Shown in pieces: positions 17,976-64,000 of a stretch of 64,000 nt of DNA; positions within the stretch are counted from its first letter, which is position 1; the number at the start of each line of letters is the position of its first letter. This stretch comes from Bacilli bacterium (GTDB taxonomy: Bacteria; Bacillota_I; Bacilli_A; RF39; UBA660), in the NCBI GenBank assembly GCA_017936845.1, contig JAGBES010000021.1, forward strand, positions 1,160 to 65,159. The letters are read 5' to 3'. The notes beneath the pieces are model-generated. The model was not told the DNA's origin. It searched no databases and saw nothing but the letters and a program-made list of their open reading frames with translations. A program made the position numbers and the translations under genes.

Positions 17976-17990
17976 ATTATCACCTTTTTT

Positions 17991-18019: not shown

Positions 18020-18030
18020 AAAAAAAAGAA

Positions 18031-18436: not shown

Positions 18437-18475
18437 ATTATCACCTGATTAAATTATATCATATTTTATATCTTT

Positions 18476-19243
18476 TTAATTATTATTTTGATTTGAATAT
18501 GGATAATAATAGGATGGAACATTTCCTTCTACTAATTTCATTATAACTGGTATATTTGCTTCTACTACAATTTCTTTGGTTTTAAAAGGTATTATAACTT
18601 GCATATAAACTTTAACATTAACACTTACTTTTATTAAAGCATTATTTATTCCATAGCTCATAACTTCTGTATTAATATCAGTTATAACATCTCCATTCAA
18701 ATTTATTTTTACTGGTATTTTTGGTCCTAAATTTGATATTAATGAATTACGAAACACTATTCCTGATGGTATTTCATATATAATTCCTTTTTTTAATTTT
18801 TCTAGATCATAACTACTTAATATAGTACTTGATAATTCTAGTTCTTCTATTCCTCCTGACTCTAATTGTTCTAAATAATTTTGCACATAAATTGTAATTT
18901 TATTTAAGACTGTATTTACTATAATAGGATTAAAATCAGTAGATACAATATTTCCTTCTTTATCTTTTGTTTGAATAAATAATTCTTCTTTATTCATATC
19001 TTTAAATACATTATTGTTTACTGCTTCTGTAATCATTACAGTTGCGATAGATTTTGCTTTTTTTTCAGCATATATCATAAGAATTGGTGTTATTTTTTTA
19101 CCTATTATACTTATACAAAAAATAATTGATATAAATAGTAATATTAGTATCAAAAATATTTTTTCTTTTTTGTTTATTTTCTTACTTTTATTCATTTTCA
19201 ATTTATATTTTTTTCTTTTTTTTAAATGAATTCTGTTTTTCAT
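18476..19243 (-). CDS. yunB: sporulation protein YunB
   Basis: Basic N-terminus, single TM, then ...ITPILMIYAEKKAKSIATVMITEAV... and a C-terminal GPKIPVKINLNGDV pattern typical of YunB. Size is about 255 aa. Confidence 0.6.
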   Translation of the reverse strand: MKNRIHLKKRKKYKLKMNKSKKINKKEKIFLILILLFISIIFCISIIGKKITPILMIYAEKKAKSIATVMITEAVNNNVFKDMNKEELFIQTKDKEGNIVSTDFNPIIVNTVLNKITIYVQNYLEQLESGGIEELELSSTILSSYDLEKLKKGIIYEIPSGIVFRNSLISNLGPKIPVKINLNGDVITDINTEVMSYGINNALIKVSVNVKVYMQVIIPFKTKEIVVEANIPVIMKLVEGNVPSYYYPYSNQNNN

Positions 19244-20545: not shown

Positions 20546-20604
20546 TTTGTTAACCCTACTTTCTACTATAACTAGTATACAATAAATAAATTTATTTTTC
20601 AATA

Positions 20605-21981: not shown

Positions 21982-22827
21982 CTATTCTTTTAAATGTTCT
22001 TCTAAATTAGTTATTTTATACCCTCTACTTTTTATATAATTAATAATTATAGGTAATTCTTCTTCTAATTCACTATTCAAATTAAAGGATATAATACTAC
22101 CACTTTCTAAATTATTTTTTACTTCTGTATAAGGATTTTTATTTATTATTATATTTGGTATTATAGTGTAGTTATTATTTAATTTACATGTTTTTAATAA
22201 TTCTTTGTCTTTACTTTCACTATAACAATATCCTGTTTTTTGTTTACCTATTTTTTCTATTATTGTTTCCATCCATACAAATGAACTATCATTATAATCT
22301 CTATTATAGCTCAAATTACCTATAATATGATTTTCTCTTATTAATATTGGAACTAAATTGCTATTTTTTTCTAACCAGTATCCATCTACAAATAGATTAC
22401 CTTTTACTTCTTTTTTATCTAATATTTTTATTAAATTATCTATGTTATCATTTTTATCAATTAGAAATAATAAACTAACCATTTTTTTATTTTTATTTCC
22501 TTTTATAATAAATTTATCTTTATTTTTTTCTAATAATATTTTAGGTTTTGTTTCATCTAGAACTATCAATGATTCTTCAAATTTTCCATATCTTTTCATT
22601 CTACTATAACTTTTATTTATATTTAATTTTTCTCCACTCAATCCAGGAATTATTGTATCATCTTTTATAGTGGCATTTTCCCCTGGATTTTTATATTTAT
22701 TTTCTATTTTTTTTATTTCTATCATTATTGAATCATATTCTTTTACTACACTTACTGTCTTTTCGGTATAAAAAAAACTAAATCCCATTAAAGAAATGAT
22801 TCCTATAATTTGAAATAGTCTTTTCAT
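21982..22827 (-). CDS. NodB-fold polysaccharide deacetylase-like protein (PdaB-like) with degenerate catalytic motifs
   Basis: Signal anchor. Collinear with the PdaB layout (KMVSLLFLID.. / ..NHIIGNLSY.. / ..IISFNLN..), but the TFDD-type Asp pair is not conserved. Confidence 0.4.
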   Translation of the reverse strand: MKRLFQIIGIISLMGFSFFYTEKTVSVVKEYDSIMIEIKKIENKYKNPGENATIKDDTIIPGLSGEKLNINKSYSRMKRYGKFEESLIVLDETKPKILLEKNKDKFIIKGNKNKKMVSLLFLIDKNDNIDNLIKILDKKEVKGNLFVDGYWLEKNSNLVPILIRENHIIGNLSYNRDYNDSSFVWMETIIEKIGKQKTGYCYSESKDKELLKTCKLNNNYTIIPNIIINKNPYTEVKNNLESGSIISFNLNSELEEELPIIINYIKSRGYKITNLEEHLKE

Positions 22828-28969: not shown

Positions 28970-30569
28970 TCAGACTGTAGACAAACCCCTAGATTTTTCT
29001 AGAGGTTTTCTTATAAATAAATTTTTTCATTAAAATTTATAATATTTTTTAATATTTTTATGAAATTATATAGAATTGATGATAATGTAAGAGGTTTCTT
29101 TCCTACATTATCATTTTTTATTGCTATATTTTTCATATTTTGGGCAGCACAAATAAGCCATGTATAATGTTGATTTTTTTTAACTCCTTTATACATAGCA
29201 TATCTATATCCATGATTTTGTTTTGAATCTGCAAAACTTCTTTCTACATGTTCTTTTCTTTTTTGATAAAGTTCTTTTCCTTCTTTCGAAAGTCTATTTT
29301 ATCTAAATATCTCATTCCATTCTTCATGTATGTGTCTTCTTACTACTTTTGTTTTATCTATATTTTCATATTTTTTATAACCATTTTTATCTATTAGACC
29401 TTTATATTCTAAAACTTCTCCTGTTTCTTTTTCATAATATACATCTAATTCTTTTACATATTCATATTTATTTTTTTCTTTTCTTGATTCTGGCGTTCCA
29501 TATCTTCTATATCCAAATACTCCAAATATATTATTTTCTATAAAATACTTTTTTATATCTAGAGTTAAATAACCTGAATCGACACCATATTTCTTTATAT
29601 CAAATCCAAATTTATGTTTTATATATTCAGCTCTATCTATAAATGGAGATGAATCATGGACATTTCCTTTTGTAACATAAGCATCTACTATTATATTACA
29701 TTTATCATCTACTGTCCTATGATCTAAATACATAAATCCTTTCTCTTTATTATCTCTATGGTAATATCCACTTTCTTTATCTGTTGTGCTTACTTTAATA
29801 TGTTTTTCTTCTACTTCATCTTTATATTCAAATGGTTTTCTTCCTTGTTTAATTCTTTCTTCATTTATTTCGTTTTCTAACCATTTACGTCTTTCTTTAA
29901 TAATACTTACTATCTCGTCATCATATTTATTTTTATTGGCATTTGCTTTTTTATGAGTTGAATCTGTATAAAATGTTGTTCCATCAACCAAATTATATTT
30001 TATTGCTTGATTTACTATTTCTACAAATATTTCTTCAAATATATCTGAATCTTTAAATCTTCTTTCATAATTTTTACTAAATGTTGAAAAGTGTGGTGTA
30101 TCTTTTCCAAACGGTATTCCTAAAAACCATCTATATTCTGCATCAACTTTTATTTTTTTACACGTTTGTCTCATTGATTTTAATCCATCTAATGCTTGTA
30201 TAAAAACTATCTTAAACAATACTACTGGATCTATGCTTGGTCTTCCATTATTATCACAATATAAGTCTTTTACTTTATCATAAATAAAAGTGAAATCTAT
30301 ATATTTATCTATCTTACGAAATAAACTGTCTTCAGGCACAATTTCTTCCATAGTAGTCATTAAGATTTCACTTTGTATATTTTTATTTATGGTTATCATT
30401 TTATCACTTACTTTCTTTATTTAACCATTTATATTATATCATTTTTTCCATAAAAAAACGAGATAAGTAAGTTCTTTTATCGGTTAAATAAAGATTTTAT
30501 CTCGCAATTTAATTATACAACATATTTATAAAAAAGAAAAGAGTGTTCTTTTACTTTGTCAACACTCTG
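28970..30569 (-). mobile_element. IS1182-family-like insertion sequence (1600 bp)
   Basis: Terminal inverted repeats CAGACTGTAGACAAA (28970-) and CAGAGTGTTGACAAA (reverse complement, ending at 30569), 13/15 identical. A single transposase reading frame. Flanked by 27-bp direct repeats. Confidence 0.8.
29011..30399 (-). pseudogene. IS1182/IS5-type DDE transposase interrupted by one in-frame TAA (29299-29301)
   Basis: The N-terminal part has GRPSIDPVVLFKIVFIQ. After the TAA the same frame continues for 95 codons (..LYQKRKEHVERSFADSKQNHGYRYAMYKG..), which is the conserved C-terminal block that in this family carries the catalytic Glu. Confidence 0.8.
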
Positions 30570-50680: not shown

Positions 50681-51670
50681 TTGAAAAAAATATTATTTTC
50701 ACTAGGTATTGTTTTAATAGCAGTCATAATTGCTTTAACAATATTTATGTGTACTAGAAAAGAAAGTAATCTAAAGAAAATAAAAGTTGCTGAAGTTACA
50801 CACTCTGTTTTTTATGCACCACAATATGTAGCTCATTCATTAGGATATTATGAAGATGAAGGATTAGATGTTGAAATAATATTAACACCAGGAGCTGATG
50901 CTGTTGCAGCTGCTGTATTATCTGGCGATGTACAAATAGGATTTTGTGGAAGTGAACAAACAATATATATATATAATCAAGGTGAAAAAGATTATTTAAT
51001 TAATTTTTCTGCACTTACTAAAAAAGATGGAAGTTTCCTAATTTCAAGAAAAGAAAATAAAAACTTCAAAATTACAGATTTAAAAGGTAGTCATATAATT
51101 GCTGGTAGAAAAGGTGGAATGCCTTCTATGACTTTGAAATGGGCATTAAATCAAAATGGTATAAATACTGATAAAGATTTAAATTTTGATACAAGTATTG
51201 CTTTTGCATCTATGAATGGTGCATTTATAGGAGGAACTGGTGACTATGTAACAGCTTTTGAACCTTCAGCTTCACAATTAGTTAAACAAGGATATGGTTA
51301 TATTGTAGCTTCAATAGGTGAATTAGGTGGGAATGTACCATATACAACTTATAATGCTAGAAAAAGCTATATAAATAAAAATAAAGATGTTATAGAAGGA
51401 TTTACAAAAGCTACTAAAAGAGGACTTGACTATGTTCATAATCATACTGCTAAAGAAATTGCTAATACAATTACTTCATACTTTCCAGATGTTTCATATA
51501 ATGAACTAGTTAATGCAATAGAGAAATATAAAAATATAGATTCATGGTATGAAACAACAGAAATAAATGAAAAAGATTTTAATCATATACAAGAAATTAT
51601 AAAAAATGATAATGAACTTGATAAAAAAGCACCTTTTGATAAATTAGTAGATAACTCATTTTCTAAATAA
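50681..51670 (+). CDS. ABC transporter substrate-binding protein (NMT1/SsuA/ThiY-like)
   Basis: N-terminal anchor. Periplasmic-binding fold resembling the sulfonate/nitrate/HMP family (VTHSVFYAPQYVA, GADAVAAAVLSG). No riboswitch is recognisable upstream. Confidence 0.7.
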   Translation: MKKILFSLGIVLIAVIIALTIFMCTRKESNLKKIKVAEVTHSVFYAPQYVAHSLGYYEDEGLDVEIILTPGADAVAAAVLSGDVQIGFCGSEQTIYIYNQGEKDYLINFSALTKKDGSFLISRKENKNFKITDLKGSHIIAGRKGGMPSMTLKWALNQNGINTDKDLNFDTSIAFASMNGAFIGGTGDYVTAFEPSASQLVKQGYGYIVASIGELGGNVPYTTYNARKSYINKNKDVIEGFTKATKRGLDYVHNHTAKEIANTITSYFPDVSYNELVNAIEKYKNIDSWYETTEINEKDFNHIQEIIKNDNELDKKAPFDKLVDNSFSK

Positions 51671-52089
51671 TGAATAAAATATTAGAAGTTAAAAATTTAA
51701 GAAAAATTTATCACACTAAAAAAGATGAAATATTAGCTGTTGATGATTTTTCTTTTGATTTATATAAAGGTGAATTTGTTTCAATAGTTGGTCCTAGCGG
51801 TTGTGGCAAAAGTACCATTTTGTCAATATTATGTAATCTTATTGATCATAGTGACGGAAAAATAAAATTTAATAATGATTCAAAAATTGGATATATGTTA
51901 CAAGATGATAGTTTATTTGATTTTAGAAATATTTTAAGCAATTGTCTAATAGGATTAGAGATTAATAAAAATTTAAATCAAGAAAATAAAGAATATGTAG
52001 AAAAGTTATTAAAAGATTATGGATTATACGAATTTAAAGATAAATATCCAGATAATTTATCTGGTGGAATGAGACAGAGAGTTGTATGA
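51670..52089 (+). pseudogene. 5' part of an ABC transporter ATPase gene, cut after the signature motif by an inserted element
   Basis: Walker A GPSGCGKST, Q-loop, signature LSGGMRQRV, then V-stop supplied by foreign sequence. Walker B and the H-loop are missing here and are found at 63805-64000. Confidence 0.85.
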
Positions 52090-52104
52090 AGTTAGTATAG
52101 ACAC
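52078..52104. repeat. attL: 7-bp core AGAGTTG (52078-52084) plus element-internal arm AGTATAGACAC (52094-52104)
   Basis: The core is repeated at 63808-63814. The arm is the perfect reverse complement of 63789-63799. Confidence 0.75.
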
Positions 52105-52152
52105 AAGTGTAATAATTAGGATTTGCTTATAACCATTATAGATAAAGGAGAA

Positions 52153-52554
52153 ATGATTATTATGTTATTAGAAAATAATACAGAAAAAGTAATTGATTTA
52201 ATAGATAAATTTGATAAATTAAATGATAAAGATAAAATCAGATTAGCAATATATATAATGGAAAATAAAAGTTTTAATACTACATTTAATATAAGAGATA
52301 TAATTATTCTTTTAAAAGAAGTAATGGATATACTTGATGATAGTTATTTAAAAACAATAGTTAATTTTAGTAAATATGAAAAATTATTATTGTTATCCTC
52401 AAAATATTTAGAACTATCTGAAAATGAAAAGAAATGTTTCACAGTTGAAATGTTATTTAATATTTACGAAAATGATTTTAATAATAAGATTATAAATGCA
52501 GAAATTAATAGGAACTTGCTAATATATGATTATTGTTATTCTGTAATAAATTAA
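52153..52554 (+). CDS. hypothetical protein (element cargo)
   Basis: ORF behind an AAAGGAG RBS. The start is ambiguous (52153 or 52162). Helical-looking, no motif. Confidence 0.4.
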   Translation: MIIMLLENNTEKVIDLIDKFDKLNDKDKIRLAIYIMENKSFNTTFNIRDIIILLKEVMDILDDSYLKTIVNFSKYEKLLLLSSKYLELSENEKKCFTVEMLFNIYENDFNNKIINAEINRNLLIYDYCYSVIN

Positions 52555-52587
52555 AACAAAAGATATGGAATTTGCATCCATATCTTT

Positions 52588-53376
52588 TTATCTATGTTTT
52601 TCATTTTCATCTAACGTAGGAAATCCCCAGTCAATATCATCTCCGAAATCAGATATTATTTCTTGTTGAGATATCGGTTGTGACTTAGCTTGAACGTCCT
52701 GTTGATCTAACTGATTTAATATTTGTGCATATCCTTCAAAAATAGGTTCTGCTTGTAATCTTTTTTTTGTTATTTCTAATACCTTTTTATATCTTTCTTT
52801 CACCTTAGATAATGTATCTTCAGACATAATTCTTTCAAATTTTTTATTAATTCTTACAGCCTGTTTTTCTACATCATAACATCCAATTATAAACTGTGAA
52901 TCAACATATAAATTCATATTTTGATTTTCATCATACATTTCTGTCATAAAAGCCCCATATTTTTCGCCTTGCAAATCACCATTATCTGCAGATTGATTTA
53001 TATACTCATTTGGCAAACGAAGAATTATAATTTTTTTAGAATCTTTATGATCCCAATTATTAAATTCATTTTCAACTTCTTCTAAAGTTGGAGGATTTAA
53101 ACCCAATTCTTGATATTTAGATATCATTTCTAGGGTTGGCATTCCCATTTGCTTTGACGTCTTATATAGTGAATTATCTTTTGTTCTTAATCCCATTTCA
53201 AAAATAGAATCCACAACACTTTCGTCATTACCTTTTCTACCTGTTCCATGAGCATAATATGAATAACCTGATTCAGACAATATAGGTTCTAATTGCTCCA
53301 TAGTTACATAAATTTCTTCAGTATTTACCATTTTTATTTCATCATTTTTATTTTTCATATTGTTCCTCACTTGCAT
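52588..53376 (-). CDS. hypothetical protein (element cargo, 262 aa)
   Basis: Long ORF of non-low-complexity sequence. No motif I can name. Confidence 0.45.
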   Translation of the reverse strand: MQVRNNMKNKNDEIKMVNTEEIYVTMEQLEPILSESGYSYYAHGTGRKGNDESVVDSIFEMGLRTKDNSLYKTSKQMGMPTLEMISKYQELGLNPPTLEEVENEFNNWDHKDSKKIIILRLPNEYINQSADNGDLQGEKYGAFMTEMYDENQNMNLYVDSQFIIGCYDVEKQAVRINKKFERIMSEDTLSKVKERYKKVLEITKKRLQAEPIFEGYAQILNQLDQQDVQAKSQPISQQEIISDFGDDIDWGFPTLDENEKHR

Positions 53377-53425
53377 TATACCATTTTAATTTAAAAAAAT
53401 ATATTTTCCCCATATTTTTTAAAAA

Positions 53426-56029
53426 TTAATCCTTAAATTTTTTTCTTAATACTGACTTAAATAATTCATCAATTAAGAAAATACATATACATACTCCTAC
53501 ACAATATAAAACTTGTAATATATTTAATGATACAATATTAAATATAGATTTAAGTGGAGTAGTAAATATAATAATTTGTATTAAAATTAAAATAATCATA
53601 CTTTTATTCATATAACTATTTCCAAACATTCCAGTTTCAAAAATGCTTTTCTTTAAATTTCTACAGGAGTATGCAAAAATCATTTCTAATATTATCAAAG
53701 TTAAAAATGCCATTGTAGTACCATCATTTATTCCATATAACTCTTTATTTAAGAAATATACAAGAATAACCGCAATTGTTTTTAAAATTGATGAGATAAT
53801 AATTTTTGAAATGAGAAATGGTGTAAAAAATGAACTATCTTTTTTTCTAACATTTCTACTCATAATATCACTTTGTTCTTTTTCAAATGCAAGCGCTATT
53901 GCAGGTATTGAATCTGTTATTAAATTTATATATAAAAGTTGAATAGGTAAAAATATTTCTAATCCAAATATCATACCTAAAAATACTATTAAAACCTCTG
54001 CAATATTACCTGTCAATAAATAAACTAAAACATTTCTAATGTTATCATATATTCTTCTACCTTCTTTTACTGCAGTAACTATTGTTGAAAAACTATCATC
54101 AGAAAGTATTATATCCGAAACCCCCTTTGAAACTTCTGTCCCAGTTATTCCCATACCAACACCAATATTTGCATTTTTAAGTGCTGGTGCATCATTTACT
54201 CCATCACCAGTCATAGCAACAATTTTATTATTAGCTTTCCAAGCATTTACAATCGATAATTTATTTATAGGACTAACTCTAGCGTAAACAGAAAAATTAT
54301 TAACAATATCTTTAAGTTCTTCTTCGGAATATTTATCTAATTCAATTCCTGAAATTGCCTCATCATCAGTTTCTAGTATTCCTATTTCTTTTGCTATTGA
54401 AGTTGCAGTTGACAAGCTATCTCCTGTAATCATTATTGGTTTAATATGTGCTAATTTACACATCTCTATTGCTTCTTTTACATCATCTCTAGGTGGATCC
54501 ATCATACAAGTCATTCCAACAAATACAAGTTCAGATTCAAGATTATTATTTAATTCATATTCATTATTTAAATCTTTATATGCGAAAGATAGAATCCTAA
54601 ACGCTTTATTTGATTCTTGAATTTCTATTTCTTTTAATTCTTTTATTTTATCATCAGTTAATTTTTTTATTTTTCCATCTTCTAATATTCTATTACAGCA
54701 TTTAATAATAGAATCGAAACTACCTTTTGTTAATATCTTATTGCAATCATCAAATCGATTAATTGTAGACATCATTTTTCTATCAGAGTCAAAGGGCAAT
54801 TCATCTATTCTTTGGTGTTCATTTTTAATATGATCTACATCCAAAGTACATTCACAATAATTATATAAAGCTATTTCTGTTGGATCACCAATATATTCAT
54901 TTTCATTCTTACAAACATCATTATTTAAAATCATAATATCAAGAAGCAAGTTTTCAAGTAATGTATCATTTTCATTATATAAATTATTATCATAATATAA
55001 TTCTCTAATTTTCATTTTATTTTGAGTTATAGTACCTGTTTTATCAGAACAAATAATTTCAGTACAACCTAGTGTTTCAACAGAAGACATCTTTCTAACA
55101 ATAGCTTTCTTTTTCGCCATTGAACTTATTCCTAACGAAAGTGTAATAGTAATAACCGCAGGTAGTCCCTCAGGTATTGCAGCAACTGCAAGTGATATAG
55201 AAAGCATTATTACTTCGGTTATTTCCATACCTTTAATAATTCCAACTATAAACATAACAACTATTATAACTGCTATTATTAGAGATAATACCTTGCTTAT
55301 TTCATTTATTTTCATTTCAAGTGGTGTTATTTCTTTTTCTTCATTATTTAAACTATTTGCAATTTTTCCTATTTCAGTTTTCATTCCTATCTCAGTCACA
55401 ACTGCAAGTGCTTTTCCATAAACCACATTTGTTCCTGAATAAATCATATTTTTTCTTTCCGATAGTGCAACATCACTTTCAAGTTTTACAATACTTTTGC
55501 TTACAGCTAATGATTCACCAGTAAGAGAAGATTCATCAACTTTGAGTGATGCCTCCCATATTAATCTAGCATCAGCTGGGACAGTATCTCCAGCCTCTAG
55601 CACAAGAATATCACCTCTAACAATTTCTTCACTATTTATAATATATATATTTCCATTTCTTTTTACTTTTACTTTTGATACTTGCATTTTCTTTAACGAA
55701 TCTATAGCTTTATCTGCCTTTAATTCTTGAGCAAAACCTAATATAGCATTAATAATTACTATTGCTAAAATTATAATACTATCTGTAAATGATTCATTAT
55801 TCAATAAAGATATTATAAATGAAATTATCGATGATATTATCAAAATAATTATCATTAAATCTTTAAATTCATTTAGAAATTTTAGAAAATTAGATTGTTT
55901 TTTATTATCCTGTAATTTATTATAACCTTCTTTTTTCAGTCTTTTTTCTACTTCGCTAGATGAAAGCCCATTTCTCGATGTAGATAAGTTCTTTAATACT
56001 TCCTCAACATTTAAATTATAGTATCTCAT
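53426..56029 (-). CDS. P-type cation-transporting ATPase, type IIA-like (Ca2+-ATPase-like)
   Basis: TGES, phosphorylation site CSDKTGTITQN, MITGD, hinge TGDGVNDAPAL, and 10 TM. Start probably ATG 56029. Confidence 0.9.
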   Translation of the reverse strand: MRYYNLNVEEVLKNLSTSRNGLSSSEVEKRLKKEGYNKLQDNKKQSNFLKFLNEFKDLMIIILIISSIISFIISLLNNESFTDSIIILAIVIINAILGFAQELKADKAIDSLKKMQVSKVKVKRNGNIYIINSEEIVRGDILVLEAGDTVPADARLIWEASLKVDESSLTGESLAVSKSIVKLESDVALSERKNMIYSGTNVVYGKALAVVTEIGMKTEIGKIANSLNNEEKEITPLEMKINEISKVLSLIIAVIIVVMFIVGIIKGMEITEVIMLSISLAVAAIPEGLPAVITITLSLGISSMAKKKAIVRKMSSVETLGCTEIICSDKTGTITQNKMKIRELYYDNNLYNENDTLLENLLLDIMILNNDVCKNENEYIGDPTEIALYNYCECTLDVDHIKNEHQRIDELPFDSDRKMMSTINRFDDCNKILTKGSFDSIIKCCNRILEDGKIKKLTDDKIKELKEIEIQESNKAFRILSFAYKDLNNEYELNNNLESELVFVGMTCMMDPPRDDVKEAIEMCKLAHIKPIMITGDSLSTATSIAKEIGILETDDEAISGIELDKYSEEELKDIVNNFSVYARVSPINKLSIVNAWKANNKIVAMTGDGVNDAPALKNANIGVGMGITGTEVSKGVSDIILSDDSFSTIVTAVKEGRRIYDNIRNVLVYLLTGNIAEVLIVFLGMIFGLEIFLPIQLLYINLITDSIPAIALAFEKEQSDIMSRNVRKKDSSFFTPFLISKIIISSILKTIAVILVYFLNKELYGINDGTTMAFLTLIILEMIFAYSCRNLKKSIFETGMFGNSYMNKSMIILILIQIIIFTTPLKSIFNIVSLNILQVLYCVGVCICIFLIDELFKSVLRKKFKD

Positions 56030-56039
56030 ATTGCACAAC

Positions 56040-56195
56040 CTATTTATCTAATTTAACTTCTTTCCAATTATTTTTTTTATCAATTTCATCTAAATTTTTC
56101 AAAGTTTCTTTAATAATTTTTTCCTGTTTTTTCATAGTTTTCTCTAATTTATTTAATTTGCGATTAAATTTTAACTTTTCTATTTTTTTATTCAT
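56040..56195 (-). CDS. small Lys-rich coiled-coil protein (51 aa) coupled to the P-type ATPase gene
   Basis: AAGGAG RBS 7 nt before ATG 56195. The stop lies about 10 nt before the ATPase start. Confidence 0.35.
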   Translation of the reverse strand: MNKKIEKLKFNRKLNKLEKTMKKQEKIIKETLKNLDEIDKKNNWKEVKLDK

Positions 56196-56210
56196 ACTGC
56201 TCTCCTTTAT

Positions 56211-56273
56211 TATAATTATTACTTCAATTTTAATTATACCACACTTCAAACATAATTGAAGTAATAATTATAT
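56211..56273. promoter_or_regulatory. perfect 19-bp inverted repeat (operator-like) bracketing the ATPase-operon promoter
   Basis: TATAATTATTACTTCAATT (56211-56229) and AATTGAAGTAATAATTATA (56255-56273). The 25-nt spacer contains a minus-strand TGGTATAAT extended -10. The right arm overlaps a plus-strand TTGAAG -35. Confidence 0.5.
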
Positions 56274-56315
56274 AATTTTAATATAAAATTCAAAAAATAA
56301 TAATGGAGGTATTAA

Positions 56316-56654
56316 ATGAAAAATGCTACTACAATGAACAATTTGAAAAAGATAGTAAAAGCAAAAAATAAATCACTAACATCATTAGCTGTAGAGTTAG
56401 AAGTTTCACAAGAAGCAATTAGTCAATATATTAGTGGTAAAATAAAGCCTAAAACTTCCACTATTATTCAAATGGCAAAAATATTAAATACAACTACTGA
56501 TTATTTACTTGACTTAACTGACAATCCTAATCCATCAGATTTTGTACTATCTGAAAAAGAAAATATGATTATAAATAACTATCGTTCATTTGATGATACA
56601 AATAAGATTAAAGTAGAAACATACATTGAAGCAATTAAAGATTTGTACAAATAA
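56316..56654 (+). CDS. XRE-family HTH transcriptional regulator
   Basis: LTSLAVELEVSQEAISQYISGKIKP HTH. Transcribed divergently from the ATPase operon. Confidence 0.8.
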   Translation: MKNATTMNNLKKIVKAKNKSLTSLAVELEVSQEAISQYISGKIKPKTSTIIQMAKILNTTTDYLLDLTDNPNPSDFVLSEKENMIINNYRSFDDTNKIKVETYIEAIKDLYK

Positions 56655-56686
56655 AAAGATATATCATACTACACGATATATCTTTT
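56654..56686 (+). terminator. terminator of the HTH regulator gene
   Basis: 12-bp stem AAAAGATATATC/GATATATCTTTT followed by TT. Confidence 0.65.
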
Positions 56687-56747
56687 TTATGACGTTATGA
56701 CATCTTTTTTCACTAACCCCTAGCAAATAAAAATGTCATAAATGTCA

Positions 56748-57488
56748 TTATTCATTATCTTCTAAAAAATAATTAACAAGTTTCTCATAATTATCTTGGC
56801 TATTTAAGCAAGTATCAATTAAATAACCTTTTACATTATTTGTTTGATATTCTTTTATTCCTCTTATATAAAAATCTTTATTTCTATCTTCTATATAGAA
56901 AGGCATAATATCATTATATAAACATTCTCTAAACATTATCATTCTACCAACTCTACCATTTCCATCTTGGAATGGGTGAATCTTCTCAAATCTAACATGA
57001 AATTCAATAATGTCTTCAATACTTTTTTTATCAATTTTATCGTACCAATTCATTAATTCTTTCATGTCATTTTGAACATTATTTGGTAATGATGTAGTAA
57101 TATTTCCAACAAAGTTTTTTCTTTTTTTATAATCTCCAACATTAAACCATTCTTTTTCACTATCAGTTAAAGTTCCATCTTTTAAGATAAAATGAAATTT
57201 TTTTATCATATCTTCTGATAATTTATCATCTATTGTATCTAACATATATTTAAATAAAGTAAAATGATTTTTTGTTTCAGTAGCATCTTTTAATACTATT
57301 ACTTTTTCACTACTTGTTAAAATAGTTCCTGTATCATAAATACTTGCTGTTTCATCTGGAGTAATAGTTGAACCTTCAATATGATTAGTATTATATGCAA
57401 AATCAAGTTGTGTCTTATGATAAAGACTACCAGATAAATTCATGTTTTTTTGTTCTATTAAAGCTTTCTTAATATCTTTTACTTCCAT
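56748..57488 (-). CDS. Fic/Fido domain protein (class II, N-terminal inhibitory motif)
   Basis: Active-site motif HPFQDGNGRVGR. N-terminal TNHIEG fits the (S/T)xxxE(G/N) inhibitory motif. Start at ATG 57488 (AAAGGAAAGGAG RBS). Confidence 0.85.
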   Translation of the reverse strand: MEVKDIKKALIEQKNMNLSGSLYHKTQLDFAYNTNHIEGSTITPDETASIYDTGTILTSSEKVIVLKDATETKNHFTLFKYMLDTIDDKLSEDMIKKFHFILKDGTLTDSEKEWFNVGDYKKRKNFVGNITTSLPNNVQNDMKELMNWYDKIDKKSIEDIIEFHVRFEKIHPFQDGNGRVGRMIMFRECLYNDIMPFYIEDRNKDFYIRGIKEYQTNNVKGYLIDTCLNSQDNYEKLVNYFLEDNE

Positions 57489-57489
57489 A

Positions 57490-57939
57490 TTATTCTCCTT
57501 TCCTTTTATTGAAAGTTTTTTCAATAAGTTCTTTTGTTTCTTTATTAGCACTATATACTGATAAATAATTAAATAATAAGGCAATAGTTAAAAGTGAATA
57601 AGTGAATATAATTACATATATATTACTTTTAATACTACTTTGTATCATTTCTAAAAACATTACGCTTAAATACATTAAACCACTTAATACTATTATAATA
57701 GCAGTAGCATCATCAAATGATCTTTTAATTGACTTAGATTTATTATGGTCTAAATCAATTCCAATTCTACTCCAAGTATGTACATAAAACACTTCACAAA
57801 TTAACATTAATGATACTAATATCCAGTATATAGCACACGCTATATCTTTTTTAGTGATTAAATATATTACCATTGCAAATAGTAATAAAATGTTTGTAAT
57901 TATAACTAGATATTTACTTAAATTAATTTTTCTTTGCAT
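57490..57939 (-). CDS. 4-TM membrane protein, translationally coupled between the repressor and fic
   Basis: AAGGAGG RBS before ATG 57939. The stop is 1 nt before the fic ATG. Four hydrophobic helices. Confidence 0.5.
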   Translation of the reverse strand: MQRKINLSKYLVIITNILLLFAMVIYLITKKDIACAIYWILVSLMLICEVFYVHTWSRIGIDLDHNKSKSIKRSFDDATAIIIVLSGLMYLSVMFLEMIQSSIKSNIYVIIFTYSLLTIALLFNYLSVYSANKETKELIEKTFNKRKGE

Positions 57940-58435
57940 TTTCAATTGCCTCCTTTCTTCTAGCACTTTCTAACACATTAATAATTTCCTTACTTGTAGA
58001 TATTTGATATTCGGTATCTTCTATAGTTTGTTCCATCACTTCTTTTTCAGTATCAGGAATATTATCATTTGTTAGTTTTTGTTTAAATGATTCAACTAGT
58101 TCTTCCCAGTTTTTAATCATTGCAGAGGTATTTAAAATTGCATCTACTATTTGGTCTCCTTTTAAACTTGAATAATAGTTTGTTAAAAAAGGATTTAATG
58201 GAGTAACTTGAAAACCAAGACCAGCAGCATACATTAAGTCATTGTAATTAATATCAATATATTTACTTATCTTTCTTAATGTTTTAGGATTAGGTATTTC
58301 TCTTTCGCCTGATTCTATACGAGCAAGTTCGGTATCACTAATATTGGCAAGTCTTGAAAGTTCTCTTTTAGATATACCTTTTTTTTCTCTTGCTTCAGCA
58401 ATAATTTCTCCAACGCTTTTGTCATTTTGTATCAT
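57923..58435 (-). CDS. XRE-family HTH regulator (CI-like repressor candidate of the element)
   Basis: GISKRELSRLANISDTELARIESGER HTH plus a C-terminal domain of about 100 aa. Transcribed divergently from the replication/mobilization genes. Confidence 0.8.
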   Translation of the reverse strand: MIQNDKSVGEIIAEAREKKGISKRELSRLANISDTELARIESGEREIPNPKTLRKISKYIDINYNDLMYAAGLGFQVTPLNPFLTNYYSSLKGDQIVDAILNTSAMIKNWEELVESFKQKLTNDNIPDTEKEVMEQTIEDTEYQISTSKEIINVLESARRKEAIENAKKN

Positions 58436-58460
58436 GGTACATTGCCCCTTTCGTAGTTAT

Positions 58461-58605
58461 AATATACCATATTTTTAGCAATAATTCAACTTTTTTGAAG
58501 AAATTTTATTATTTTTGCAACTTTTTAGTTGACATTTGCATTTTTAAAGTGTATATTCAACTTATAAGTTGCATTTGTCGTAGATTTGCAACTTATGTAT
58601 AGTTG
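58461..58605. promoter_or_regulatory. divergent promoter/operator switch region of the element
   Basis: Leftward TTGAAT-N17-TATATT (58489-58461). Rightward TTGACA-N17-TATATT (58529-58557). Three CAACT..AGTTG inverted repeats at 58518-58531, 58558-58571 (a perfect 14-bp palindrome) and 58589-58605. Confidence 0.5.
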
Positions 58606-58763
58606 TTTGAAAATCTCATAGAGTTGGATATTGTAAGCGCCGTAAATTGCCGACTCGTAAAACAAATTACAAAGGTGCCTAGTAATAACCCTATTGGTAC
58701 GGGAGTTGTTGATTATCTAAAATCATCAATAATAGCAAAAAAAATAATGAAAGGAGGAATCTA

Positions 58764-59714
58764 ATGAAATCTTTAGGAGAAATAAAAAATAGCATAAAAA
58801 AAGACTTCATTGTAAATGGAATGTTGAAGTCTGAAGGTGTTTATTGTTTAGTTGCATTACCTAAAGTTGGAAAGTCTATGTTAGCACTACAACTTTCTGA
58901 CTCAATAGCAAACAACAAACAATTTTTAGGATTTGAAATTAAACCTTCACCTGTTCTTTATGTTAGCACAGAAAATTCTGGGAGTCAATTATATGAAAGA
59001 ACAAAACTTATGAATATTGAATTTACTGATGACAATTTTAAATTTATAGATAGAAATCAATATCCAGTATTTTATTTAAGAGATTTGGAATATGATATAA
59101 AACAATTTTCAGAGTCTGGTGGTAAATTATTAATTATAGATATGATAAAAGATATTAAATTTGATAAAAAAATTGAAACTAATAGTTATGACGATATAGG
59201 ACAAGTTGCTATTCCAAAATTAAGAGAATACTGTTATAAATATCATTTAACAATTTTGTTTGTTCATCATTTAAATAAAAAAGGTAAATCATTAGGATCA
59301 ACTGCTTATGATGGTGCTGTTGACGGAATATTAAGATTAACTCAAAGTAGTGTGGATAAAAAAAGGTATAGATTAGTAGTTGATAATAGAGATTATGAAG
59401 GATTAGATTTATCTTTAATTAAAGATGATAAATGTATTTTATCAGTTTGTCATGAAGAAGATGATGAAGAAGAATTAGATATAAATTTAGTTTTATTGAT
59501 TAAATATGCTATTTCAAAAATAGAATTTGAATTCACTTGTTCAAGTATTATTAAAGATTTAAATTTAACAATCACACCAAAAAGATTTGGCAAACTTTTA
59601 AATTCAAATATTAAAAGATTAGAATGTGAAGGTCTTCATATTATAAGTAATAGAGTTAGTAATGCTCGTAAATATATTGCTAAATATGAAGAACCTATTA
59701 TAGAAAATGAATAA
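58764..59714 (+). CDS. RecA-fold ATPase (RepA/AAA_25-like replication or helicase-loader protein)
   Basis: Walker A LPKVGKSM, Walker B LLIIDMI, and LFVHHLNKKG, typical of RepA-like proteins of mobile elements. Confidence 0.6.
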   Translation: MKSLGEIKNSIKKDFIVNGMLKSEGVYCLVALPKVGKSMLALQLSDSIANNKQFLGFEIKPSPVLYVSTENSGSQLYERTKLMNIEFTDDNFKFIDRNQYPVFYLRDLEYDIKQFSESGGKLLIIDMIKDIKFDKKIETNSYDDIGQVAIPKLREYCYKYHLTILFVHHLNKKGKSLGSTAYDGAVDGILRLTQSSVDKKRYRLVVDNRDYEGLDLSLIKDDKCILSVCHEEDDEEELDINLVLLIKYAISKIEFEFTCSSIIKDLNLTITPKRFGKLLNSNIKRLECEGLHIISNRVSNARKYIAKYEEPIIENE

Positions 59715-59822
59715 TTTTCTATTAAAGTTTTTGATAACTTTTTTCTAAAAAGTTAGTAAAAAATGAACGAGGCACGTTTTGTGAGTTTACTCATGAAAGT
59801 GACGATAGTGAATATTTTTACA

Positions 59823-60002
59823 ATTATTAAAATAGAAACTAATCTATTTTAATAATAAATTAAATAATAAGTATCTAGTAGATAGTTATTATTTAATCTT
59901 GTTTGTAGCATTACACCTTTACTCTTGTTTAGGTGTATTTGCGTAAAACAAGCATGGTTTTTTAGGGTATCCCTAAACTCACGTGGGCTATGCCCTAGTG
60001 AG
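59823..60002. repeat. cluster of inverted repeats upstream of the relaxase gene (candidate oriT and/or single-strand origin)
   Basis: 14-bp perfect IR 59823-59836/59843-59856. 16-bp IR with one mismatch at 59862-59894. Smaller GC-containing hairpins at 59913-59936, 59961-59977 and 59978-60002. Confidence 0.35.
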
Positions 60003-60055
60003 ATATGTCAATAAATGACCAATTCATCTAAATAAGTATATCAAGGAGGTAATAA

Positions 60056-61507
60056 ATGTATGATGGAAAGCAAGTAATTAGATTTGAAAATAAATTTAAA
60101 GCCAAAGATTTAGGTGGACTCGGTATAGAATTAGTTAAAAGAAAAGGTACAGGAAACTATGACAAAGATAGAACAAAATTTAATACGTCTTATGTACCAC
60201 TCTCTAAAACTACTCTACAAGAACAAGTTTATTCTAAATTAAAAGAAAATGAAATATATTATAATGATAGCAAGAATGTTAACTTATTAAATGGTGCTAT
60301 CGTAACAAGTGGTAAAGAGTTCTTTACCAGTTTAGGAATGAATTTTATAGATAGTGGTAGAAAAGTTCAAAAAGGGAAAAACAAAGGAAAACCTATTCTA
60401 GTTCCTGATATTAAATCTGAAAATGATATACCAGAAAAAGTTAAACAATTTTTTGATGATAGTTATATATTTTTAGAAAATCTTGTTGGTAAGGAAAATA
60501 TAGTTTATGCAGAAGTTCATTATGATGAAGATACACCACATATGCACTTCTATTTTCTTCCAGTAGTTGATAAGGTAAAAAGAAAAGTATTTGAAACCGA
60601 TGAAAATGGTAAAATTTTATATCGAGAAGGTATTGATAAAAATGGTAATACAAAAATGGTTCCTATACAAAAGAAAGACGAAAAAGGAAAAAATGTGTAT
60701 AACATTGAAACTGGTAAATTTTTAAATTGTGATCACTTTTGGAAACAATTAGGTGGGAAAGCATCTTTTGCTAAAATTCAAGATGACTTTAATGATTATA
60801 TAACAAAGAAAGGTTTTAATCTTGATCGTGGTAATATAGGTGGTAATGCCCATCATATAACTAAAAATGAAAAAATCGTCATGGATTTACAAGAACAAAT
60901 AGATGATATGAAAAAGGAATTACAAAAAAATCAAAAATTAAACAATATAGAATTAGATACTAATAAAGAATTTAAAGATATAGAAACTAATGATATTTTA
61001 AATCCAGTTAAAAGAAAAATAGTGGGTTATAAGGATGAAGATATAAATAAATTAATTGAATATTCTAAATCGACTGGTAAAGAAAATTCTAAAAATAAAA
61101 ATATAATCCGTAAAAAAGATAGTTTGATTAATGATTTAAATTTAGAAATAAACTTATTACAAAGTGAAAATGCTAAATTAAAAGATGGTCGTGGTATTAA
61201 AGAAAGAGATACTATTATAGAAGAACAAAAAGTTAAAATAAATAGTTTAAGTAATTTGATAAAACAAAAAGATAAAATCATTGAAAGTCTAGAAGATAAG
61301 ATTGATAAACTACAAGAGTCTTTTGAAAAATTTAAAAATAAAATGTATACCTTATGCGATAAATTTTGTAAAGCTATTTCTCATCTAGTTGGTAAACATG
61401 ATATTGAAGAAGATGAAATTGATTATGATATGTTTGAATATCACGCAGACAATATTATCCATAAATACGAAAAAAAGGAAATTGATAAAGATGATTTTTG
61501 CTTATAA
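60056..61507 (+). CDS. MobV (Mob/Pre) family relaxase
   Basis: Motif III HYDEDTPHMHFYFLPV (HxDE...PHxH). N-terminal K.K..LGG....R.....N.D..R...N layout. Long C-terminal coiled coil. I could not find the motif I His of HxxR at the expected spot. Confidence 0.75.
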   Translation: MYDGKQVIRFENKFKAKDLGGLGIELVKRKGTGNYDKDRTKFNTSYVPLSKTTLQEQVYSKLKENEIYYNDSKNVNLLNGAIVTSGKEFFTSLGMNFIDSGRKVQKGKNKGKPILVPDIKSENDIPEKVKQFFDDSYIFLENLVGKENIVYAEVHYDEDTPHMHFYFLPVVDKVKRKVFETDENGKILYREGIDKNGNTKMVPIQKKDEKGKNVYNIETGKFLNCDHFWKQLGGKASFAKIQDDFNDYITKKGFNLDRGNIGGNAHHITKNEKIVMDLQEQIDDMKKELQKNQKLNNIELDTNKEFKDIETNDILNPVKRKIVGYKDEDINKLIEYSKSTGKENSKNKNIIRKKDSLINDLNLEINLLQSENAKLKDGRGIKERDTIIEEQKVKINSLSNLIKQKDKIIESLEDKIDKLQESFEKFKNKMYTLCDKFCKAISHLVGKHDIEEDEIDYDMFEYHADNIIHKYEKKEIDKDDFCL

Positions 61508-61736
61508 AATACCATGTTCTTATATTCTCTATGATAAACATTGTAATCTAGTTATTAAAACAAATAATAATATAAATCATAAAATGTATAAAAATATATC
61601 TTTTTTAATAAATGTACCAAATAAAATAATGAATAAAGTTAAAATGAAATATGATTGGAGGATTGGTAATATGAGAAAAAACTATATAAATAACACATAC
61701 TATGATTACAAATGTTTTATTAAATTCTTAACATAA
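61491..61736 (+). CDS. possible small protein (81 aa) downstream of mob
   Basis: In-frame ATG inside track ORF 61389-61736, beginning just before the mob stop. Weak RBS. Confidence 0.2.
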   Translation: MIFAYKIPCSYILYDKHCNLVIKTNNNINHKMYKNISFLINVPNKIMNKVKMKYDWRIGNMRKNYINNTYYDYKCFIKFLT

Positions 61737-61961
61737 ATCTGATAGGAGGAATTATTATAAACATTCAGTACAATGTTATTGATATTATAAGTAAAACTAT
61801 AACTGAAGTAGATTTAAAAGAACAAATAAATAAAAAATTATTCAAAATAATTGAAATGTTAGAACTTAAAGGATAATAAATGAAATTTATTTGTTATAAT
61901 GTAATTGGTTATAAGTTTAACTTAAATCCTAATTATTGCCTAAGTATTGGAGGTAATAGTT

Positions 61962-63572
61962 ATGAATGAAATGGAGAGTGTTAAGAAAAAGGTATATAGA
62001 GTTGGTATTTATTTAAGATTATCTGATGAAGATAGAGATAAGCAAAATAAATTAGATGATAGTGAGTCAATTAAAAATCAAAGACATTTACTAATGATGG
62101 AAATTGATAAACACGATGATTTTATATTAGTTGATGAATATTCAGATGAAGATTTATCTGGTGCAGGAACTTATAGACCCGAATTTGAAAGATTGATAAA
62201 AGATTGTGAAGATGGGAAAATAGATATCGTTATATGTAAGAGTCAATCAAGATTTTCTAGGGATATGGAAGTAATTGAAAAATATATTCATAATAAATTT
62301 ATTGAGTGGGGAGTTAGATTTATAGGTCTTGCTGACAATGCTGATACAAATGTTGCAGGTAATAAAAAATCTCGTCAAATAAATGGACTTGTTAATGAAT
62401 GGTTTTTAGAAGATACTTCTAATAATATTCGTAGTGCTTTTAATGCTAAAATGCGTAAGGGAGAATTTATTTCCCCTTTCGCAGCATTTGGGTATGAAGT
62501 TGATAAAGATGATAATAATAAATTAGTTGTTGATCCAGTTGCTTCAGAAGTAGTTAAAGAAATATTTGAACTATATTTAAAAGGTTTAGGATTTACAGGT
62601 ATTGCAAAATATTTAAATAATAAAAAAATACCCTGTCCTTCTCTTTATAAGTATCAAAAAGGAATTAAACTTAATGTAATAAGTAATCGCCCTAGAGAAC
62701 AAATAAAATGGACTACAAACGCTATAAAAACAATTCTTTCAAATGAATTATATATAGGTAATTTAGTTCAAGGAAAAAGGACCACTGTTAGTTATAAAAA
62801 TCATAAAATTAAAAATAAAGATAAAAATGAATGGATTCGTATAGAAAATACACATGAAGCTATTATTGATAAAGAAACTTTTAACAAAACACAAATTGCG
62901 ATGCAAGAAAGAACTAAACCATCTACTAAAACGGGAACAATTCACAATTTTTCTGGTAAAGTGTTTTGTCTAGAATGTAATCATTATATGAGAAAGAAAA
63001 ATTCTAGTAAACATGAATATCTAGTATGTTCTAACAATCGTGATGGATATGATGATTGTATAAATAAAGATTCTATTAGATATGATTTATTAGAAAATAT
63101 TATTCTAGAAGCAATTAATAGTAAAATAAAAAAATACTATGATGAAGTTAAATTAGATAATCTTGTACAAACTAAAAAAAATAATCGTTTCGAAAGTAAA
63201 ATTAATGCTTTAGAAAAAAGAAAAAATGATGTAAATAAAAAAATAGCACAAACTAGAAAATATCTACAAAGTCTTTATGAAGATAAAGTTAATGGTGTTA
63301 TAACAAATGAGCAATTTAAAGATTTAATTGGTGATTATAATAAAAATGAAGATATATATACTAATCAAATAAAAGAAATTGATGAAGAAATTAATTATTA
63401 TAAAGCCAAACAAGATAGTTCGTTAAATTATAAAGAAATTTTTAGTAAGTACGAAACTCTTGAAAGTCTAAATAGGGTTATTATTGATGAATTTGTTGAT
63501 AAAATCTTTATTGGAAAATTAGATAAAGAAAATAATAAAAGAGATATTCAAATAAAATGGAACTTTGAGTGA
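61962..63572 (+). CDS. large serine recombinase (resolvase/invertase N-domain + recombinase + zinc-ribbon + coiled coil)
   Basis: VGIYLRLSDEDRD (catalytic Ser), SRFSRD, the Cys cluster C..C...C.....C, and a long C-terminal coiled coil. ATG 61962 follows a GGAGG RBS. TGTTATAAT extended -10 at 61892-61900. Confidence 0.9.
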   Translation: MNEMESVKKKVYRVGIYLRLSDEDRDKQNKLDDSESIKNQRHLLMMEIDKHDDFILVDEYSDEDLSGAGTYRPEFERLIKDCEDGKIDIVICKSQSRFSRDMEVIEKYIHNKFIEWGVRFIGLADNADTNVAGNKKSRQINGLVNEWFLEDTSNNIRSAFNAKMRKGEFISPFAAFGYEVDKDDNNKLVVDPVASEVVKEIFELYLKGLGFTGIAKYLNNKKIPCPSLYKYQKGIKLNVISNRPREQIKWTTNAIKTILSNELYIGNLVQGKRTTVSYKNHKIKNKDKNEWIRIENTHEAIIDKETFNKTQIAMQERTKPSTKTGTIHNFSGKVFCLECNHYMRKKNSSKHEYLVCSNNRDGYDDCINKDSIRYDLLENIILEAINSKIKKYYDEVKLDNLVQTKKNNRFESKINALEKRKNDVNKKIAQTRKYLQSLYEDKVNGVITNEQFKDLIGDYNKNEDIYTNQIKEIDEEINYYKAKQDSSLNYKEIFSKYETLESLNRVIIDEFVDKIFIGKLDKENNKRDIQIKWNFE

Positions 63573-63788
63573 GAGTTTGATTATTCTTACTCTCTACTCA
63601 TTACTTATATAAACTCTAAATATACATAATTTTAATAAAATATATAATTAGGCTTGAATCACTATGACACATTGGACAAGTCTTATAAATACTAGGAAAA
63701 GTTAAACTTTAGTAAAAAATATATTAAAAATAATAGTTTGAATTAGAACACGAGTTAACCTTTATAAAATAAAGGAATTAGATAGTAA

Positions 63789-63814
63789 GTGTCTATACTG
63801 CATTCAAAGAGTTG
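63789..63814. repeat. attR: element-internal arm GTGTCTATACT (63789-63799) plus 7-bp core AGAGTTG (63808-63814)
   Basis: Mirror image of attL. Joined, the two ends give a dyad-symmetric attP centred inside the core. Confidence 0.75.
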
Positions 63815-64000
63815 CTCTAATTAGAACACTTGCAACTAAACCTGATATTCTACTTTTAGATGAACCTTTCAGTGCATTAGATTATCAAACAAGACTTGCC
63901 GTATCTGATGATGTATATAAAATCATAAAAAAAGAAAAAAAGAGTGCCATTATGGTAACACATGATATAGCAGAAGCTGTTTCTATGTCAGATAGAATAA
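63805..64000 (+). pseudogene. 3' part of the interrupted ABC transporter ATPase gene (continues past the window)
   Basis: QRVALIRTLATKPDILLLDEPFSALD (Walker B and D-loop) and IMVTHDIAEA (H-loop). No start codon upstream in frame (TGA at 63739). Confidence 0.85.

Follow-up and report, generated by a model that had tools for sequence, protein, structure and literature searches.

The 64,000-nucleotide stretch of contig JAGBES010000021.1 analyzed here (the window), from an uncultured Bacilli bacterium, ends in an ATP-binding cassette (ABC) transporter operon whose ATPase gene is interrupted by an 11,730 bp element. We consider it probable, at roughly 85%, that this is a site-specific serine-recombinase integrative and mobilizable element (IME), inserted by attP x attB recombination within a NitT/TauT-type ATPase gene. 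A first-pass annotation of this DNA had proposed that a serine-recombinase element splits the gene and that precise excision would restore the open reading frame (ORF); that proposal now has direct support in conspecific alleles in which the site is empty. The target region comprises the following features.

50681 to 51670, + strand: substrate-binding protein gene (NMT1/SsuA-like), first gene of the target ABC operon; Pfam NMT1 4e-23 and NMT1_2
51670 to 52084, + strand: 5' part of the ABC ATPase gene, with Walker A, Q-loop and signature LSGGMRQRV; matches intact protein P0001 over residues 1-138 at 100% identity
52056 to 52104, + strand: attL, with the left half of attB, GT at 52081-52082 and the right half of attP (TGTATGAAG..AGTATAGACAC)
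52083 to 63812, no strand assigned: integrated element of 11,730 bp; the 7-bp identity between the junctions leaves its exact ends ambiguous
63789 to 63836, + strand: attR, with the left half of attP (GTGTCTATACTGCATTCAAAGA), GT at 63811-63812 and the right half of attB
63805 to 64000, + strand: 3' part of the ABC ATPase gene, with QRVALIRTL, Walker B, D-loop and H-loop; equal to P0001 residues 136-200 and continuing past the window

The 5' ORF of the ATPase gene (51670-52089) encodes 139 residues ending in LSGGMRQRVV, its stop codon (52087-52089) lying within element DNA, and the frame picks up at 63805 (QRVALIRTLATKPDILLLDEPFSALD...VTHD) and stays open to the end of the window. The heptamer AGAGTTG occurs at 52078-52084 and again at 63808-63814 with no further identity to either side, and the 11-mer AGTATAGACAC at 52094-52104 recurs, reverse-complemented, at 63789-63799 and nowhere else in the 64 kb, against a chance expectation of 0.05 copies; two were reached in 0 of 100 shuffles. 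An attP rebuilt from the ends within the window has dyad symmetry at 17 of 25 positions, centered between the G and T of the core. What the first-pass annotation had said of these junctions holds throughout: our coordinates and translations agree with its description of an ORF cut after the signature motif with Walker B onward reappearing in frame at 63805, the 7 bp identity, the QRV encoded on both sides (CAG versus CAA) and the perfect 11-bp inverted repeats are all correctly stated, and the joined ends do give a dyad-symmetric attP centered in the core. The product joined in silico is 200 residues long, matches Pfam ABC_tran from position 2 to 136/137 of the model collinearly across the join, and is likewise collinear with intact full-length ABC ATPases. 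There is no contrast in G+C content between the element (24.6%) and its flank (23.5%).

The uninterrupted gene, which the first-pass annotation had suggested looking for in related strains, was found in conspecific contigs with precise collinearity. A search of a large protein collection returned three full-length 248-residue proteins (P0001-P0003) with 100% identity over all 200 residues of the joined ORF, and the contigs encoding P0001 (L124-L131) have the gene order of the window: IF-2, NusA, a Rce1-like protease, a metallophosphoesterase, the NMT1-type binding protein, the ATPase and a 261-residue permease. These contigs share 99.1-100% DNA identity with the flanks in the window and are thus conspecific but without the element; the match of every one of them breaks at 52084 and restarts at 63805 with a 10-nucleotide overlap, so that attB (...GGAATGAGACAGAGAGTTGCTCTAATTAGAACAC...) can be read directly from the conspecific empty site. 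More distant intact homologs (64-72% amino acid identity; L001, L002, L003, L008 and others) are likewise collinear. In this species the intact product is found on 10 contigs and the exact interrupted N-terminal product on seven. Two short contigs of the interrupted allele, L141 and L142 (SRR12529200 and SRR12529166), end within ~20 nucleotides of the attL junction, the kind of assembly break to be expected from samples in which the occupied and the empty allele occur together.

The remainder of the ATPase gene and the permease gene lie beyond the window and are visible in L124 and in L132, which is the window's own contig (ENA ERZ28654807 scaffold_106, 205 kb; 100% identical); a permease had been presumed downstream of the ATPase, as the binding-protein gene lies upstream, and the empty-site contigs bear this out. 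The synteny of the binding-protein gene is unchanged in those contigs. As its match to the NCBIfam SsuA_fam model falls below the cut-off, the substrate of the transporter appears assignable only generically, as NitT/TauT/SsuA-like, and a search for an upstream riboswitch with Rfam at gathering thresholds returned nothing beyond one tRNA and RNase P class B. Two other explanations of the split were rejected: a healing of the gene by a gene end supplied by the element does not fit, since attL reads QRVV followed by a stop and attR gives no Walker A domain, and an assembly artefact does not fit identical junctions in seven independent contigs of the same species as well as in other species.

To locate the crossover we reconstructed attB and attP for 15 loci carrying related recombinases, assuming exchange at the GT. 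The stretch shared by the two junctions is 7 bp in the window and shorter at other loci, e.g., attL CAAAGAGTTG versus attR CATACAGTAG in L084, and CAGAGAGTTG versus CAAGCAGTAT in L093; across ~15 independent junction pairs AGT is the only sequence common to both junctions, which together with the dyad center indicates that GT is the crossover dinucleotide. The 7-bp core of the first-pass annotation is therefore present as an identity at both junctions, but the 15-locus comparison resolves it into a 2-bp GT crossover with surrounding similarity between attB and attP. At the conspecific empty site the codon is CAG, matching attL, so the CAA at attR derives from the element. The consensus of the 15 attP sites is AGTGTCT-N7-ATTCA-N4-GT-N4-TGAAT-N7-AGACAC, a 46-bp two-tier dyad running from GTGTCT to AGACAC with 87-100% complementarity at 5-9 bp and 18-22 bp from the GT center; for the window the reconstructed attP junction reads ...GTGTCTATACTGCATTCAAAGAGTTGTATGAAGTTAGTATAGACAC.... 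The symmetry of attB is weak, and attB lies in the stretch coding for LSGGM(R/K)QRVALIRTL. In the attP sites of large serine recombinases (LSRs), inner motifs serve the recombinase domain and outer motifs the zinc-ribbon domain, around a non-palindromic central dinucleotide, and the two-tier attP around GT fits this layout predicted by LSR biochemistry. The sites thus show what is typical of LSRs: an imperfect-dyad attP of ~40-50 bp, a non-palindromic 2-bp crossover and a distinct attB. Locus L089 provides a natural confirmation of the reconstructed attP, having two elements of this recombinase family in tandem in the ATPase gene (about 5637-5682 and 11621-11644) separated by a complete attP-like site, GTGTCCTTACAACATTCAAAGA-GT-TGTATGAATATAGTATAGACAC; the tandem suggests accretion at an already occupied site.

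The genes and candidate regulatory regions within the element are the following.

52123 to 52554, + strand: conserved left-end ORF, 143 residues (130 from a probable internal ATG start), without Pfam, NCBIfam or PHROG family
52588 to 53376, - strand: cargo ORF, 262 residues, no family match (Pfam, NCBIfam, PHROG)
53426 to 56038, - strand: cargo P-type cation ATPase, Ca2+ type (P2), 870 residues; Pfam E1-E2_ATPase, Cation_ATPase_N, Cation_ATPase_C and Hydrolase
56316 to 56654, + strand: HTH_3 (XRE-type) regulator, 112 residues; Pfam HTH_3 1.4e-11
56748 to 57584, - strand: cargo Fic-domain protein; Pfam Fic 6.1e-18, motif HPFQDGNGRVGR read from the translation
57490 to 57966, - strand: small membrane protein, 158 residues (149 as called in assemblies); weak DUF6773 match below the cut-off
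57923 to 58435, - strand: XRE-type helix-turn-helix (HTH) protein, 170 residues, candidate repressor; Pfam HTH_19 6.8e-13 and PHROG transcriptional repressor families
58485 to 58596, + strand: candidate control region, with a sigma70-like promoter TTGACA-17-TATATT (58529-58557) and overlapping CAACT-N-AGTTG palindromes
58603 to 58764, + strand: 53-residue ORF, head of the mobility gene string, no family match
58764 to 59714, + strand: AAA_25 (RepA/DnaB-core-like) ATPase, 316 residues; Pfam AAA_25 1.9e-20 and PHROG helicase/primase ATPase cores
59859 to 60005, + strand: candidate origin of transfer (oriT) region, with a 19-nucleotide hairpin (59859-59877 / 59879-59897) and, at 59971-60005, a G+C-rich block that is invariant
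60056 to 61507, + strand: MobV/Pre-family relaxase, 483 residues; Pfam Mob_Pre 1.1e-16, 61.7 bits against a cut-off of 25.5, HYDEDTPHMH at residue 155
61962 to 63572, + strand: large serine recombinase, 536 residues (541 from a TTG at 61947); Pfam Resolvase, Recombinase, Zn_ribbon_recom and DUF4368

The recombinase gene ends ~235 nucleotides short of the right junction. Its product scores above the cut-offs for all three domains expected (PF00239 67.7 bits, cut-off 23.3; PF07508 91.7; PF13408 44.9) and for DUF4368, and has the catalytic motif YLRLSDED and the resolvase motif VGIYLRLSDEDRD. In PHROG it falls into an integrase family (1e-104). The relaxase carries the HxDExxPHxH motif. The combination of a recombinase, a MobV relaxase and a RepA-like ATPase, mobilizable in type, had been named by the first-pass annotation, and Pfam domains confirm it, the ATPase being of the AAA_25 family. 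Among the ORFs of the element we found no mating-pore, type IV secretion, VirB4 or coupling-protein families (Pfam, NCBIfam), and no capsid, terminase, portal, tail or lysis families (Pfam, PHROG). This gene set, an LSR and a relaxase without mating-pore or phage structural genes, identifies an IME, and the element also has its own integration enzyme, is bounded by att sites and has an empty counterpart in relatives, as is required of one. A prophage or phage satellite with a serine integrase could account for the integrase match, for HTH proteins that match phage repressor families and for an AAA_25 protein resembling phage helicase-primase cores; however, the PHROG and Pfam phage-related matches are confined to these integrase, repressor-type HTH and helicase-core families, and an 11.7 kb element with a MobV/Pre relaxase, without a phage structural or lysis gene and with an attP unmatched in viral contigs makes a phage origin exceedingly improbable.

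Among the cargo, the best NCBIfam models for the P-type ATPase are Ca2+ ATPases, all slightly under their cut-offs. Homologs of the left-end ORF lie at the same end of the related elements L084, L086, L087 and L089. The small membrane protein gene is co-oriented with the repressor-like gene and adjoins the HTH gene in related elements too. The stretch encoding the 53-residue ORF (58603-58764) is unusually G+C-rich for this genome (GCGCCGTAAATTGCCGACTCG), and it could specify a small regulator, a candidate recombination directionality factor (RDF) or a structured leader RNA.

The specificity of the recombinase became apparent from a search of one genome per species (GTDB), which returned 43 loci. 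Recombinases 68-100% identical to that of the window (L081-L099 and L110) all lie between or beside the halves of an orthologous ABC ATPase gene, these halves being 48-89% identical to those of the window and usually accompanied by a binding-protein gene upstream and a permease gene downstream. The family loci with readable flanks represent ~20 species of gut metagenome-assembled genomes (MAGs), and all junctions are at the same codon. The family elements range from 4.2 to ~12 kb, with the recombinase gene at either end and in either orientation relative to the ATPase gene, and the relaxase, AAA_25 and repressor modules are common only to the closest relatives (L084-L087 and L110). The smallest members, L091 7200-11641 (4.4 kb) and L093 9042-13220 (4.2 kb), consist of the recombinase and one or two cargo genes: by eye, a 363-residue DUF1016/YhcG-like protein in L091, and in L093 a 320-residue Fic-like protein together with a 214-residue collagen-repeat (GPT/GPQ) protein, which we take to be reminiscent of exosporium BclA-type proteins. 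In a megablast search against PLSDB the element matched no more than a 219-nucleotide stretch, in a Fusobacterium record, and the best LSRs on PLSDB plasmids are at most 37% identical to this recombinase.

These loci bear on the likeness to Tn4451, which the first-pass annotation had raised, and on the alternative that a Tn4451/Tn4453-type transposon with a low-specificity TnpX-like recombinase landed in the ATPase gene by chance. The LSR, Mob/Pre relaxase and ATPase modules match those of the transposons (Clostridium perfringens / Clostridioides difficile; TnpX, TnpZ), in which oriT lies upstream of the relaxase gene, as the candidate oriT does here, the recombinase C-terminus is of the DUF4368 type and excision to a circle is expected, and the few relatives of the recombinase in the PDB include the catalytic domain of TnpX. 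The ends of Tn4451 are short and GA-centered. The crossover found here, in contrast, is a GT within a conserved 46-bp attP, and all of the ~20 readable loci are at one codon of an orthologous gene. The similarity to TnpX is also detectable in the catalytic domain alone, the only TnpX structure available for comparison being that 120-residue domain (E-value 3e-9), and PDB relatives of the recombinase are limited to this domain; no catP (chloramphenicol resistance) or other resistance gene is found among the element ORFs with Pfam or NCBIfam. Tn4451 has low target specificity (PMC5704250). DUF4368 is associated with multi-targeting LSRs (Durrant et al. 2022, PMC10083194), which would favor a chance landing, but the DUF4368-bearing clade studied here behaves, judged from its insertion sites, as single-site. 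The likeness to Tn4451 thus stands for the module combination and the IME type and fails for the strictly site-specific integration of this family, and we regard a chance landing as very unlikely.

The site-specific IME that we favor has known counterparts. Serine-recombinase site-specific IMEs typically integrate in and disrupt dispensable genes (PMC5704250), and those of streptococci (rumA etc.; PMC5704250, PMC5357655) share with the present element a single LSR and a relaxase that is often MobV, the lack of mating-pore genes, the disruption of a dispensable gene, a very short attL/attR core and variable cargo; they differ from it in that here the target is an ABC ATPase, the hosts are low-G+C gut MAGs and the cargo consists of a P-type ATPase and a Fic protein. 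The LSR/target clusters of Durrant et al. 2022 (PMC10083194), such as the prolyl-isomerase example, likewise place diverged LSRs on one conserved coding site with attB and attP deduced by comparative logic, although DUF4368 was linked there to multi-targeting and this LSR is single-site. Our literature searches turned up no account of this target, a NitT/TauT-type ABC ATPase gene cut in the stretch from the signature to Walker B, and it appears to be new; new too are the cargo and the hosts, uncultured gut MAGs of ~24% G+C that go under the label Bacilli or Tenericutes.

We infer the catalytic mechanism from what is known of the LSR family, and mobilization in trans, the position of oriT and control by a repressor are proposals as well; the occurrence of occupied and empty sites in one species, and of the same element in several, lends indirect support to attP x attB recombination by this LSR. 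Strand exchange at the GT of the valine codon leaves the signature motif and Walker B on separate parts of the gene and inactivates the ATPase, and the reverse reaction would restore the gene without a scar. Following excision, the MobV/Pre relaxase would nick an oriT located directly upstream of its own gene, and the element, by way of a mating pore supplied by a conjugative element in the same cell, would reach a new host and reintegrate at the same conserved codon. The intergenic DNA 5' of the relaxase gene is 81% conserved, against ~73% in adjacent coding DNA (L084, L086, L087, L110), and the pairing of its hairpin is kept via a compensatory change in diverged relatives; this region, hairpin and invariant block together, is on sequence grounds the likely oriT, although no nick site was identified in it.

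As to control, scanning for sigma70-like promoters gave 93 matches where 104 were expected, so that at 24% G+C the scan is uninformative save for one site with clustered operators, TTGACA-17-TATATT, which at 11/12 is the top match in the element. It lies in the gap between the divergent gene for the 170-residue HTH protein and the string formed by the 58603 ORF, AAA_25, relaxase, small ORFs and recombinase. TGCAACTTWT has three exact occurrences in the 64 kb, each of them within 58485-58596, where there are also two copies with one mismatch; together they form CAACT-N-AGTTG palindromes over the -35 and directly after the -10. From its sequence, the arrangement has the appearance of a repressor-operator layout, in which the divergent XRE-type repressor would probably silence the string from the 58603 ORF to the recombinase via the palindromic operators over the strong promoter.

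The same element, at 98.9-99.6% nucleotide identity over up to 11.7 kb, is present in L081, L082, L083, L134, L136 and L137, contigs whose flanking ABC sequences match the window at just 74-80% identity and whose downstream genes differ; it is found at 99.5% in L133 also, with no flank match of at least 100 nucleotides. An element ~99% identical despite flanks at 74-80% means recent entry into several species by horizontal transfer, each time at the same codon.

Several results weigh against a functional IME. The NCBIfam MobV model gives the relaxase 94.4 bits, just short of its cut-off of 100, and no N-terminal relaxase motif with a catalytic residue was identified in the 483-residue protein; the smaller members L091 and L093 have no recognizable relaxase, so that not every family member is strictly an IME. 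Among the samples listed, the intact and the interrupted alleles come from different ones, and the polymorphism alone is therefore no proof of ongoing excision. No conjugative helper element is visible within the window, and we identified no RDF. TnpX needs none (PMC5704250), and the recombinase of this element could by analogy be independent of one as well. Nor was the excised circle found when the exact 38-nucleotide attP junction was searched for in metagenome_contigs and viral_contigs; circular forms are rarely assembled, which makes this search uninformative rather than negative. The missing circle and RDF would also suit an immobile remnant, an old, decaying insertion that has lost excision and left the ATPase a pseudogene, as would the fact that the operon has been struck twice in this contig. 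We think this very improbable given that the ORFs of the element are all intact and its att half-sites perfect, that its copies in four or more host backgrounds show 98.9-100% identity and that the insertion is polymorphic within the species.

The second strike in the operon is a further mobilizable element. The match of L132 to the empty-site allele ends at L132 12791, 172 nucleotides before the end of the permease gene, and the second element occupies L132 12792-21611, starting ~750 nucleotides past the end of the window. It encodes a 422-residue serine recombinase (L132 12825-14093, - strand), HTH proteins, an 863-residue ABC-FtsX protein and another Mob_Pre relaxase, and relatives of this second recombinase (52-99% identity) are found at the same permease position in L081, L083, L084, L085, L088, L091, L096 and L098. 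A composite transposon that would have moved both elements along with the DNA between them was rejected, as L132 and L081 share only ~80% identity in the ABC/permease DNA that separates the two elements, against 99% in the first element. In L093 (3488-8626) the binding-protein gene also appears to be split, into parts covering residues 22-150 and 135-323, and between them lies a third serine recombinase that is 31% identical to the recombinase of the first element; taken with the ATPase and permease splits, this would make all three genes of the operon recombinase targets somewhere in the lineage. One may speculate that the operon is a landing pad for several unrelated recombinase elements whose excision is co-ordinated by a host signal (sporulation or substrate starvation), the operon being rebuilt on demand. 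We give this little credence; if true, an uncultured gut lineage that forms spores would possess a reversible gene switch made up of several elements.

The first-pass annotation had raised the possibility of a reversible gene switch, by analogy with skin-like and SPbeta-type elements. The corresponding rival reading is a developmentally regulated intervening element of the skin, SPbeta, vfbin or gin type, whose programmed excision, e.g., in the mother cell during sporulation, would rebuild the transporter while the germ line stays interrupted. The premise that the host sporulates is supported by gene content, with SpoVAC, SpoVAD and YunB above NCBIfam cut-offs, and the host shares this with the species in which skin splits sigK, SPbeta splits spsM and gin splits gerE (PMC4191935, PMC5025042, PMC5595907), as it shares an LSR element in a split coding frame and scarless excision. 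Known intervening elements use LSRs and need not be prophages (PMC5595907, PMC4191935), and some members of the present family are reduced to a recombinase and one or two genes. However, the genes split in the known cases are sporulation genes with mother-cell expression (PMC5595907), whereas the target here is the ATPase of a NitT/TauT-type importer with no known role in sporulation. The recombinase or RDF of the known elements is driven by sporulation sigma factors (PMC5595907, PMC4191935, PMC5025042), and no sigmaE/sigmaK -10 motif (CATACA-T, CATA-N3-TA) was found 5' of the recombinase gene, the relaxase gene or the head of the operon, a weak test with a consensus from distant species; in its place is the sigma70-like, operator-flanked promoter. 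The element further differs from skin, SPbeta and gin in its relaxase, in its movement between species, with 99% identity across flanks at 74-80% speaking for horizontal spread and not for a fixed inherited switch, and in the many conspecific strains that lack it and have the gene intact. Lastly, since the permease gene of this operon is split as well, this strain would not regain transport if the first element were the only one to excise. The switch proposal is thus not upheld, and we consider it very unlikely.

Elsewhere in the window, a sporulation cluster at 16543-19243 (- strand) encodes SpoVAD, SpoVAC and YunB, with a YlxY-like polysaccharide deacetylase at 21982-22827; this uncultured gut lineage of ~24% G+C keeps endospore genes. 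Three genes at 4730-6424, 14289-16133 and 19295-20602 (all on the - strand) encode proteins of 435-614 residues with a type IV pilin-like N-terminus (KGFTLIELLAVIVILAIIALIA), and a neighboring homolog was called PF07963 N_methyl in the empty-site contig. An IS1182-family transposase gene (29299-30399, - strand; 266 bits against a 270-bit cut-off) lies between recA and an ECF sigma/anti-sigma pair.

The site-specific IME described here opens no new biological principle. It is a natural example of LSR integration with occupied and empty alleles in one species and an identical element in several, in which ~15 junction pairs fix the crossover to one dinucleotide and both att sites are defined without experiment. 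The resulting recombinase/attP/attB triple, from a DUF4368 clade thought to be mostly multi-targeting, is of interest for genome-engineering toolkits. For the bacteria themselves, it indicates that uncultured gut species of very low G+C content swap mobilizable elements across species boundaries, with one small ABC importer operon repeatedly sacrificed as the integration target.

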